NCBI RefSeq assembly: GCF_000008565.1
Contig: NC_001263.1
Coordinates: 2,003,533 to 2,035,532, forward strand
Direction: 5' to 3'
DNA length: 32,000 nt
From: Deinococcus radiodurans R1 = ATCC 13939 = DSM 20539
GTDB lineage: Bacteria; Deinococcota; Deinococci; Deinococcales; Deinococcaceae
Made by a program: the position numbers and the translations under genes
In this document: piece after piece, positions 22,919-26,128 of the stretch
Layout: the number at the start of each line of letters is the position of its first letter
Numbering within the stretch: position 1 is the stretch's first letter
The notes under the pieces: generated by a model
Told to the model about the DNA's origin: nothing
Database searches by the model: none
What the model saw: the letters and a program-made list of their open reading frames with translations, nothing else

Positions 22919-23158
22919 TCAGTCCACCCACTCGATGACGAGCCGCCCGGTTTGTGCCGCTTCCTGCACCTCGGCGTCACCCGCGCTCCGGAGCCGGGGC
23001 AGGTGGGCAAAGCGTGGCGTGGCCGAGGCGTAGCCCAGGCGAACCACCACGTTGTCGCTGAGTTCGTCCTTGCCGATGCGCCACACCAGTTGCCCGCCGA
23101 GCGCTTCCAGTTGCCGCGAGAGTTCGGGGGGCAGCTCTGCAAAAGCCATGAGCGCCAT
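22919..23158 (-). CDS. Small conserved hypothetical protein (76-79 aa)
   Basis: ORF MALMAFAELPPELSRQLEALGGQLVWRIGKDE..., with start at ATG 23158 or 23149. Appears co-transcribed with the 157-aa gene. Confidence 0.55.
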   Translation of the reverse strand: MALMAFAELPPELSRQLEALGGQLVWRIGKDELSDNVVVRLGYASATPRFAHLPRLRSAGDAEVQEAAQTGRLVIEWVD

Positions 23159-23215
23159 TGTACGCCCCGCGCCTTCGCTGCCTGCTCTGCTTCTCTTCTG
23201 ATGCCCGGTGTCCCC

Positions 23216-23244
23216 TTGACCCCCCGCAGCTCACCCTCTACCCT
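23216..23244 (+). promoter_or_regulatory. Candidate promoter of the asd leader (-35 TTGACC, 17-nt spacer, -10 TACCCT)
   Basis: TTGACC at 23216-23221 and TACCCT at 23239-23244. The predicted TSS coincides with the ATG at 23251. Confidence 0.55.
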
Positions 23245-23250
23245 GACCGC

Positions 23251-23283
23251 ATGAGTGCCTTGATTGCCACCACGACCCCTTGA
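23251..23283 (+). CDS. Candidate leader peptide MSALIATTTP (three consecutive Thr codons ACC ACG ACC)
   Basis: ATG lies 6 nt after the -10 box (leaderless). The stop TGA abuts the first GGGCGG segment of the attenuator. Confidence 0.45.
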   Translation: MSALIATTTP

Positions 23284-23300
23284 GGGCGGTGCGTCAGGCA

Positions 23301-23334
23301 GCCGCCCCGTAGGACATACGCGGGCGGTTTTTTT
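23301..23334 (+). terminator. Intrinsic terminator (attenuator) 20 nt upstream of the asd start
   Basis: CCGCCCcg (23302-23309) pairs with cgcGGGCGG (23319-23327), followed by T7 (23328-23334). The alternative pairing is GGGCGG 23284-23289 with CCGCCC 23302-23307. Confidence 0.7.
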
Positions 23335-23353
23335 GTCGTAAGGAGGAGCAAAG

Positions 23354-24370
<1,017 letters not shown>

Positions 24371-24481
24371 CGCTTACAACATGGGGCCGGGCCGCAGCGT
24401 AGGTTGCCGCCTGGCCTCTGGTTGTGGTGGGTCCGCTGACCTTCCGGGCCGCCGGGGGCCGGCTGCTCTACAATGCCCGCC

Positions 24482-24721
24482 ATGAAAACTGACCCCGCAG
24501 ACCTCACCCTTTTTCTGGCGCAGAGCGTGGTGGATCAGCCCGCGCTGGTGCGCGTGAGTCGGCGTGGCCCGACCGTGCTCGTGCGGGTGGCCCCCGGCGA
24601 GGAAGGCCGCTTTATTGGCAGACAGGGCCGGGTGATTCAGGCGATTCGCACCCTGGTTCGGGCCGCCGGCGACCCCCGCGAGCGCGTGAACGTGGACCTC
24701 GACGCGCCGCGCAAGGCATGA
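24482..24721 (+). CDS. KH-domain RNA-binding protein (UPF0109/YlqC-like)
   Basis: GRFIGRQGRVIQAIRTLV (GXXG loop). TACAAT box 7 nt upstream of ATG 24482. The ORF-maximal ATG 24473 lies inside that -10 box. Confidence 0.85.
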   Translation: MKTDPADLTLFLAQSVVDQPALVRVSRRGPTVLVRVAPGEEGRFIGRQGRVIQAIRTLVRAAGDPRERVNVDLDAPRKA

Positions 24722-25284
24722 CGCGCCCCGAAGCGAGCGGCCCGCCCGACGCCACGAGACTGGGGCACCTGCTGGGGCCGCACGGCGTGCAGGGCGGCAT
24801 CAAGCTCTACGTGCTGGGCGACCCGGCGCAGGTGCTGGCGCTGAAACGAGTTTATGTGGAGTCGCGCGGCTGGCTGAGTCTTCGCCGCGCCGAGGGGATG
24901 CCCCCGAACCTCGTGTTGTACCTCGCGGGCGTGTCCTCACGCGAGGGAGCCGAAGAATTGCGCGGCCTTCAGGTCTACGCTACCGACGCCGAGCTGCCCG
25001 ACCTGGAAGAAGGCACGTTCTACTACCACGACCTGCGCGGCCTGGAAGTGTACGGCGCGGGCGGCGAACGCCTCGGCACTGTCAGCGACGTGATGGACGC
25101 CGGGCACCAGGACCTGCTGGTGGTGGACTACGGCGGGGGCACGTCGTTCGTGCCGCTGCAAGCGCCTTACGTGGAGGTGCCGCTGGCTGGCGGCAAACCG
25201 GGCGCGGTTCACCTGACCGCCGACGCTCCCGCCGGGCTGATCGGGCCGGAGCCCGGCGAAGAAGACGGCGCGGCGGAGTCCTGA
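24718..25284 (+). CDS. rimM: Ribosome maturation factor RimM
   Basis: [17 protein letters not shown]-terminal barrel and a PRC-barrel C-terminus. The ATG overlaps the KH gene stop (ATGA). Confidence 0.9.
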
Positions 25285-25288
25285 GCGA

Positions 25289-26128
25289 GTGCTGACCTTT
25301 TCTTTTTTGACGCTCTTTCCCGAACTGCTCACCCCCTTCGCGCAGGAAGCCATCGTGGGCAAGGCGCGGGAACGGGGTCTGATAGACGTGCGGCTGGTCA
25401 ACCTGCGCGACTACGCCCAGAACAAGCATCTCAAGGTGGACGACACGCCCTATGGCGGCGGCGCGGGCATGGTCATCCGGGTGGACGTGGCGGCGCGCGC
25501 TCTGGACGCCGCGTGTCAGGCGGGGCCGCGGCCCGACGAGGTGATTTTGTTCACCCCAGCGGGCGAGCGCTTTACCCAGCAGGTGGCCGAGGAGCTGGCG
25601 AACAAACAGCACCTCGTCTTTCTCTGTGGCCGTTACGAGGGCTTCGACGCGCGGGTCGAGGGACTCGTCACCCGCGAACTGAGCCTCGGCGACTTCGTGA
25701 TGATGGGCGGCGAGGCGGCGGCGGCCTGCGTGCTCGAAGCGGTGGCCCGGCTGCGGCCCGGCGTGCTCGGCGACGAGGCGTCGCACCAGCAGGACTCCTT
25801 TTCCAGCGGTTTGCTCGACTACCCCGAGTACACCCGTCCCCCTGAGTGGGAAGGCCACAGCGTGCCCGACGTGCTGCGCGGCGGCAACCACGCGGCGGTG
25901 GCCCGCTGGCGGCGCGACCAGGCGTTGGAACGCACCCTGCGCCGCCGTCCCGACCTGCTGCCCGGCGCCGGCCTGACGCCGCAGGACAGTGCGGCCCTGC
26001 TGGCACTGGGCGTGACCCCCGAACAGCTCAGCATCTGGGACGCGCCGCCCCCACCCGCGCCAAAGGTTCGCCGCAAAAAGAAGCCGTCGGCTGAGGACAA
26101 GGCCCCGACGGACACTTCTAGCGAGTAA
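25289..26128 (+). CDS. trmD: tRNA (guanine37-N1)-methyltransferase TrmD with a Pro/Lys-rich C-terminal tail
   Basis: [35 protein letters not shown] start at 25289. About 45 extra C-terminal residues ([19 protein letters not shown]). Confidence 0.95.

Follow-up and report, generated by a model that had tools for sequence, protein, structure and literature searches.

A putative leaderless leader-peptide attenuator upstream of asd in Deinococcus radiodurans and its relatives

In the trpL attenuator the tryptophan (Trp) codons occupy positions −5 and −4 relative to the stop codon, a few bases beyond which the antiterminator arm begins. The lysine (Lys) gene cluster of the aminoadipate route in Thermus thermophilus is reportedly also under leader-peptide attenuation (Tsubouchi et al. 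2005, J Biol Chem). Leader peptides translated from leaderless mRNAs have been described as well: eight in Streptomyces lividans, including trpL, ilvL, leuL and thrL (PMC8079986), and the leaderless polycysteine short open reading frames (ORFs) of mycobacteria, whose function was tested (bioRxiv 10.1101/834739). Closest to the present case are the 14 leaderless leader peptides for attenuation predicted in 2014 in Deinococcus deserti (de Groot et al., PMC4007540), whose leaderless genes, according to the differential RNA sequencing in that report, have a TAnnnT −10 motif directly 5′ of the AUG. Here we describe a candidate element of this kind upstream of asd, the aspartate-semialdehyde dehydrogenase gene, in a 32,000-nucleotide stretch of the Deinococcus radiodurans R1 genome (NC_001263.1, positions 2,003,533 to 2,035,532, forward strand); this whole stretch is called the window, and coordinates are those of the window unless a locus number is given.

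We read the asd leader, with a probability of roughly 0.8, as a ribosome-mediated (leader-peptide) transcription attenuator that would make asd expression depend on charged threonine (Thr) and isoleucine (Ile) tRNAs. An initial annotation of the window had proposed a threonine-sensing attenuator here, and its promoter, mini-ORF, three GGGCGG/CCGCCC segments, T7 run, Shine-Dalgarno sequence and asd start codon were all found where it had placed them. The attenuator reading has also survived the comparative tests described below, which concern the leaderless geometry, a run of Thr, Ile and methionine (Met) codons with synonymous variation, a G-rich segment past the stop codon, and the terminator. 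The parts of the leader are listed here in order; the promoter boxes and their spacer, the start codon, the three repeated hexamers, the T7 run and the Shine-Dalgarno sequence were read directly from the sequence.

23216–23221, + strand: −35 box, TTGACC
23222–23238, + strand: spacer of 17 nucleotides (nt) between the −35 and −10 boxes
23239–23244, + strand: −10 box, TACCCT, of the TAnnnT type
23251, + strand: ATG that starts the leader ORF, 6 nt past the −10 box
23251–23283, + strand: leader ORF, ATG AGT GCC TTG ATT GCC ACC ACG ACC CCT TGA, encoding MSALIATTTP* (10 codons plus TGA)
23263–23277, + strand: regulatory codons, with Ile5 (ATT) at 23263–23265 and Thr7–Thr9 (ACC ACG ACC) at 23269–23277
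23278–23283, + strand: proline (Pro) codon followed by the TGA stop
23284–23292, + strand: segment A, GGGCGGTGC, the antiterminator 5′ arm, beginning at the first base past the stop
23284–23289, + strand: first GGGCGG
23298–23311, + strand: segment B overall, of which GCA(G)CCGCCC at 23298–23307 pairs with segment A
23301–23311, + strand: terminator 5′ arm, GCCGCCCCGTA, within segment B
23302–23307, + strand: central CCGCCC
23317–23334, + strand: terminator 3′ arm, TACGCGGGCGG(T), plus the T7 run
23322–23327, + strand: second GGGCGG
23328–23334, + strand: T7 run
23340–23348, + strand: asd Shine-Dalgarno sequence, AAGGAGGAG
23354–24370, + strand: asd, aspartate-semialdehyde dehydrogenase, 338 amino acids, with its ATG at 23354 and Pfam domains PF01118 and PF02774

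The identity of asd is supported by matches of its product to Semialdhyde_dh (PF01118) and Semialdhyde_dhC (PF02774) at E 2e-51 and by the name aspartate-semialdehyde dehydrogenase carried by its homologs; it is 99% identical to metagenomic proteins and 87% identical to the D. aquaedulcis protein. When both strands were scanned, the combined pattern of promoter, leaderless short ORF, hairpin and T-run occurred at this single site in the whole window. A scan with E. coli-consensus rules called neither a promoter nor a terminator here: the promoter was missed because TACCCT fits three of the six −10 positions, and the terminator because its stem has a bulge. We judge the miss to be a limit of E. 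coli-consensus rules and no sign that promoter or terminator is absent.

Two predicted helices in the window compete for the same strand. The terminator stem (23301–23328) folds at −19.3 kcal/mol and is followed by U7, while the antiterminator (23284–23307), in which GGGCGGUGC pairs with GCA(G)CCGCCC through 9 base pairs and a 1-nt bulge, folds at −17.3 kcal/mol. Both helices, whose energies the initial annotation had named as a check, contain CCGCCC, and with 23301–23307 common to the two they are mutually exclusive in the window. A further helix between the ORF and segment A, within 23256–23300, folds at −16.8 kcal/mol. The minimum-free-energy fold of 23251–23353 (−38.2 kcal/mol, z-score −1.7) holds the terminator together with the helix of ORF and post-stop segment, and 6 of the 11 bases of the terminator 5′ arm are already paired upstream before the 3′ arm is synthesized. 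The three-segment scheme first proposed for this leader is supported in the window and is extended by the possible ORF:segment A (1:2) helix, for which comparative support is weak; a classical 1:2, 2:3, 3:4 scheme is available in the window, and we put forward the four-segment extension as a hypothesis.

The switch would work as follows. Transcription is predicted to begin at or beside the A of the ATG at 23251, which would make the leader mRNA leaderless, with the 10-codon ORF at its 5′ end. With Thr and Ile plentiful, the ribosome would reach the Pro codon and TGA and mask segment A; the second GGGCGG would then capture CCGCCC, forming the terminator, which with its U7 would end transcription before asd, yielding a terminated leader RNA with a predicted length of about 80–84 nt. 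With tRNA-Thr or tRNA-Ile scarce, the ribosome would be expected to stall at codons 5–8, 12–21 nt 5′ of segment A, leaving that segment free to capture CCGCCC on its emergence; no terminator would form, and RNA polymerase would enter asd. On an RNA with no ribosome, the ORF could pair with segment A in the 1:2 helix, and termination would again be permitted.

Counted from the first base of its A-site codon, a translating ribosome covers about 11–12 nt of message in the 3′ direction. Segment A begins at stop+3, and codons −4 and −3 lie 15 and 12 nt upstream of that point. A ribosome whose A site holds Thr7 or Thr8 should extend no farther than the stop, leaving segment A free. The Pro codon at position −1, found in 19 of 35 leaders, may together with the stop slow release and so park the ribosome over segment A. 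By the geometry of the sequence, ribosome position would thus select between the helices.

For comparison, asd loci were gathered by a protein scan with one genome per species, giving 80 loci, of which 41 are from Deinococcus or other Deinococcales; four further Deinococcus loci were chosen by protein identity. The comparison set is 53 related asd loci, and the counts of 36/42 and 45 that follow include the window. We found the full layout in 45 loci, namely 36/42 Deinococcales, 4/4 of the further Deinococcus and 5/8 Thermaceae: a TTGAC/TAnnnT promoter, a start codon 6–9 nt on, an ORF of 8–18 codons, a hairpin abutting its stop, and a U-run terminator just before asd. In the 36 Deinococcales leaders, TTGAC stands at the matching distance in 34, and the start codon (ATG or GTG) follows TAnnnT by 6–7 nt in all 36. 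These leaders also have the G-rich segment straight after the stop and the GC-rich terminator with its T-run. In some orthologs, −10 boxes such as TAGGCT, TAGCCT and TAAGGT, with a 6-nt gap, form an in-frame stop, and the leader ORF therefore cannot start further upstream in those species. Alignment of asd upstream regions, which the initial annotation had suggested, thus bears out the conservation of a Thr-type codon run, a G-rich post-stop segment and a terminator in orthologs.

The genes 5′ of the leader vary among species, so the leader travels with asd. This bears on the idea that the leader is an independent small gene with its own terminator, whose product is a small RNA or a 10-residue peptide made from a leaderless mRNA, and which merely lies beside an asd served by a separate promoter. 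The leader does have its own promoter and terminator, and attenuator-derived RNAs can act in trans in other bacteria (PMC7968998); yet its linkage to asd holds in 45 loci despite differing upstream genes, the U-run usually lies 10–62 nt from the asd start codon with no second promoter-like site called between them, and the peptide is not conserved beyond its T/I/M (Thr, Ile, Met) run. Moreover, in two of the loci without the leader asd lies 7 nt past a TAnnnT box, a different promoter solution. We consider an independent small gene very unlikely.

The RNA segments are conserved in position and composition. The segment A core, GGCGG, is at least 90% identical over 20 aligned leaders, followed by a variable spacer, and RNAalifold applied to the RNA preceding the terminator 3′ arm gave the A:B helix as consensus. 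In 34 of 35 leaders the post-stop hairpin has its 5′ edge within 0–4 nt of the stop codon's first base, and its stability exceeds that of shuffled controls in 33 of the 35. Antiterminator and terminator share 6–11 nt in leaders that we call type A and 2–3 nt in type B.

For the codons, we took 35 distinct leader ORFs, with the asd proteins of the same loci as background. Thr, Ile or Met occupies position −4 before the stop in 94% of the ORFs, and positions −3 and −2 in 91% each; over the last six codons these residues account for 60% against 13% in the background (binomial 5e-57, a figure that overstates independence given the kinship of the sequences), whereas the other two frames of the leader DNA yield 1–2%. 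Thr is written as ACC, ACT, ACG and ACA, Ile and Met replace it, and the peptide N-termini are not conserved. The rare codon ACT makes up 22/94 leader Thr codons against 9/554 in the asd genes, an 18-fold enrichment (Fisher 2.5e-13), and ATT is enriched 3-fold in leader ORFs relative to asd genes (p 0.004). Lys occurs four times in total over all leader peptides.

This choice of residues matches the metabolism of the phylum. The Deinococcus-Thermus ancestor made lysine by the aminoadipate route and had no diaminopimelate (DAP) pathway (PMC3356886), so that the asd branch leads only to Thr, Ile and Met, the residues whose codons are enriched here. The proposal that the leader senses threonine holds insofar as it is an attenuator with Thr codons, but not for Thr alone: the sensed set would be Thr and Ile, plus Met in some species, as with the leader peptide MNARMMTMTP.

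The same statistics speak to a terminator that is constitutive or controlled by a protein or metabolite, for which translation of the mini-ORF would be unneeded and the Thr codons a by-product of nucleotide constraints. ACC/ACN repeats could in principle act as RNA sequence, and the ORF region does pair with segment A in the minimum-free-energy fold. Such a terminator would nevertheless leave unexplained a bias that is frame-specific with a free wobble position (ACC 58, ACT 26, ACG 18, ACA 3), replacements of Thr by Ile and Met that make sense only at the amino-acid level, and the fixed spacing of start codon and −10 box. Nor was there a match to an Rfam riboswitch or leader family: neither a permissive search of 23100–23420 at E up to 10 nor one that applied the gathering threshold to 14 orthologous loci found Thr_leader (RF00506) or the asd RNA motif (RF01732), the only hits being suhB and isrK at E 6–9 and tRNAs. 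Of the readings weighed here we hold this one the least probable.

The leader extends beyond the Deinococcales. At the most divergent locus, asd is closest to that of Thermaceae, and leaderless-type ORFs with a Thr run precede asd in Meiothermus ruber (MVWYTTTTS*), M. granaticius (MVWYTTTR*), two Meiothermus-like contigs (MVWYTTTT*) and Calidithermus timidus (MSLARTTTT*); no such leader was found before asd in the Thermus genome examined, in Marinithermus or in Oceanithermus. Five Thermaceae leaders and five from deep Deinococcales metagenome-assembled genomes (MAGs) make up a Thermaceae-type set of 10, located as follows.

L085, 1100–1200: Thermaceae-type leader
L089, 1094–1200: Thermaceae-type leader
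L090, 906–1000: Thermaceae-type leader
L091, 911–1000: Thermaceae-type leader
L092, 906–1000: Thermaceae-type leader
L034, L035, L036, L039 and L041, upstream of asd: Thermaceae-type leaders

Here the hairpin past the stop has no bases in common with the terminator, from which a linker of 0–3 nt divides it, and compensatory changes in 10 of 18 pairs support both helices. We found no classical antiterminator in any of the 10: ribosome masks placed at codons −4, −3, −2 and the stop all leave the terminator. As a separate observation, the Meiothermus-type leader ORFs (L085, L090, L091 and L092) all begin with MVWY ahead of their Thr runs, which may reflect only close kinship.

Several points weigh against attenuation by the classical switch. 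The geometry is tight: a ribosome at Thr9 would cover part of segment A, and therefore only the first regulatory codons would give read-through, the decisive positions being 2–4 codons apart. Compensatory changes across the three GGGCGG/CCGCCC segments, suggested as a test in the initial annotation, are absent; in the MAFFT and RNAalifold alignments the GGCGG/CCGCC core shows no compensatory covariation and is nearly invariant, and the alignment of A:B helix and terminator has 0 RNAalifold compensatory pairs with an invariant core. Compensatory covariation is sparse outside the core; double changes occurred in 4 and 6 cells, a level reached by 1–3 of 500 shuffles. For the alternative helices covariation is uninformative, because the core is invariant and the alignment gaps are misplaced between subgroups; support for these helices comes instead from conservation, position and energy. 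Among GC-rich Deinococcus leaders, the C-rich arm of the terminator is tied up about equally often whether the spacer is real or shuffled (z-score −1.2 for the window), and we do not count this test as support. The ORF:segment A (1:2) helix, compared with codon-order shuffles across species, has a mean z-score of only −0.7. Thr runs are eroded in the two closest relatives (L081 and L082, both at about 1400–1432; asd 92% and 95% identical): MSASAVTVTP has two Thr and MSASAVTVAP one, against ATTTP in the window, and all RNA segments are kept. Five Deinococcales loci have no leader element. Finally, given the non-overlapping helices of the Thermaceae type, the classical switch cannot by itself account for the leaders throughout the phylum; the reading of the window is unaffected by that variant, since the window helices share a strand.

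The Thermaceae-type leaders lend weight to another translation-dependent scheme, in which the stop-abutting hairpin is decisive and blocks the terminator by some other route, strand sharing in the window being a derived reinforcement. One possible route is a clash of the adjacent helix with the RNA exit channel that prevents the bottom pairs of the terminator from forming. In the 10 leaders of this type the two helices, each backed by the compensatory changes noted above, share nothing and yet are always 0–3 nt apart; type B Deinococcus leaders share only their 2–3 nt between hairpin and terminator; and what is common to all 45 leaders is a Thr-rich ORF with a hairpin 0–4 nt from the stop. Set against this, the shared strand in the window is a GC core of 6–7 nt, sufficient for the classical mechanism, and the steric idea fits less well where linkers measure 2–3 nt, as they do in some leaders; we also know of no precedent for a steric antiterminator. 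As an account of the window we think it quite unlikely.

A broader version may be put tentatively, and we regard it as unlikely: the phylum-wide unit would be a leaderless Thr-run mini-ORF with a stop-abutting hairpin, which in the Thermaceae type would control an adjacent, non-overlapping terminator by non-classical means, for example sterically, and the strand sharing seen in the window would result from a later fusion of the helices. For the window itself, classical attenuation remains our preferred reading.

Some loci depart from the common layout in their own ways. In two Deinococcus MAGs that have no leader (L033, 2480–2503, and L040, 1184–1207), asd itself lies 7 nt past a TAnnnT box (TACTCT and TAGTCT, respectively), and its own mRNA appears to be leaderless there. 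D. taklimakanensis (L006, 2415–2503) has promoter, hairpin and T-run and no Thr-rich ORF; the frame opened by the ATG past the −10 box reads through the hairpin, in phase with the asd ATG. D. murrayi (L023, 2360–2500) has a degenerate leader in which promoter, ATG and G- and C-rich segments are recognizable, with no Thr codons and no proper T-run. At L030 (about 2221–2297) a complete leader, with MSLHTTITS*, hairpin and terminator, lies about 200 nt farther from asd than elsewhere, which suggests an insertion between attenuator and asd.

The gene upstream of the leader encodes a DUF3248 protein (22919–23158) on the opposite strand, divergent from asd, and the hairpin and T-run therefore cannot be the 3′ end of the preceding gene; the idea that the hairpin serves as that gene's terminator was ruled out on this ground. 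A program-called ORF of 41 amino acids (23158–23283) was also rejected, since the conserved promoter falls inside it and in several orthologs the −10 box supplies an in-frame stop. The only terminator-like match of the generic scan, at 23150–23167 on the minus strand, overlaps the DUF3248 start codon and is probably a chance match. Downstream of asd (24473–26128) Pfam identifies a KhpA-like KH-domain gene, rimM and trmD, and the generic scan called no terminator-like site between asd and the KH gene. The order DUF3809, DUF3248, asd, khpA, rimM, trmD is retained in the nearest relatives.

If our attenuator reading is right, the leader is a concrete regulatory element for the branch-point enzyme of Thr, Ile and Met synthesis in Deinococcus, genus-wide and reaching Meiothermus and Calidithermus. 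Its regulatory codons would track lineage metabolism, with Thr, Ile and Met enriched and Lys not in a phylum that uses the aminoadipate route. To our knowledge it is among the most compact attenuators, with a predicted transcript of about 84 nt and 10 codons. This compact size, the 2–4 codons between predicted stall and termination positions, and the frequent Pro-stop would recommend it as a model in which to study the coupling of leaderless translation to transcription. RNA-family and genome-annotation resources are today without this element and could include the leader.

The leader is closest in kind to the D. deserti cases (PMC4007540): the genus is the same, and those too combine a −10 box, a 5′ AUG and a peptide of about 10 residues rich in one amino acid with a downstream, Shine-Dalgarno-led gene for amino-acid biosynthesis or a tRNA synthetase. 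Unlike the present work, that paper contains no alternative-structure or comparative analysis. The main text of that report leaves D. deserti asd (Deide_15740) unmentioned, naming only cysS and trpEGD; the asd locus of that species is absent from the set retrieved here. In the attenuators of Actinobacteria too (PMC8079986; bioRxiv 10.1101/834739), short ORFs with regulatory codons are leaderless and stand before amino-acid genes, with hairpins and U-runs in between. They differ in phylum and targets, with no asd case reported among them, and S. lividans thrL precedes thrS without a clear terminator. Given these three precedents, the novelty suggested in the initial annotation, which was aware of no Thr leader-peptide attenuator in Deinococcus and of none translated from a leaderless mRNA, does not stand. 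Literature searches turned up neither an account of an asd leader in Deinococcus nor one of a small RNA beside DR_2008; the principle is known, and the asd leader counts as an example of it that is new or, at the least, has no demonstrable earlier description.

Other known systems lie further off. The asd RNA motif (RF01732), a structured Lactobacillales RNA that is not known to include a leader peptide, likewise lies upstream of asd; neither the window nor the orthologous loci searched matched its covariance model. The lysine attenuation reported for T. thermophilus is in the same phylum and ribosome-mediated, but uses Lys codons and serves a different operon. From E. coli thrL (Thr_leader, RF00506) the asd leader differs in having no sequence or structure homology (no Rfam match at E up to 10), in an ORF that is leaderless instead of Shine-Dalgarno-started and half as long, with 3–4 regulatory codons only, and in controlling the branch-point gene asd instead of thrABC, Met codons joining in some species; unlike in either thrL or trp, segment A begins at the base right after the stop. 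The overall plan is nevertheless that of the E. coli thrL and trp attenuators: a short Thr/Ile-rich ORF, regulatory codons a few codons before its stop, an antiterminator whose 5′ arm lies just past the stop and which shares a strand with the terminator, and an intrinsic terminator before a biosynthetic gene.

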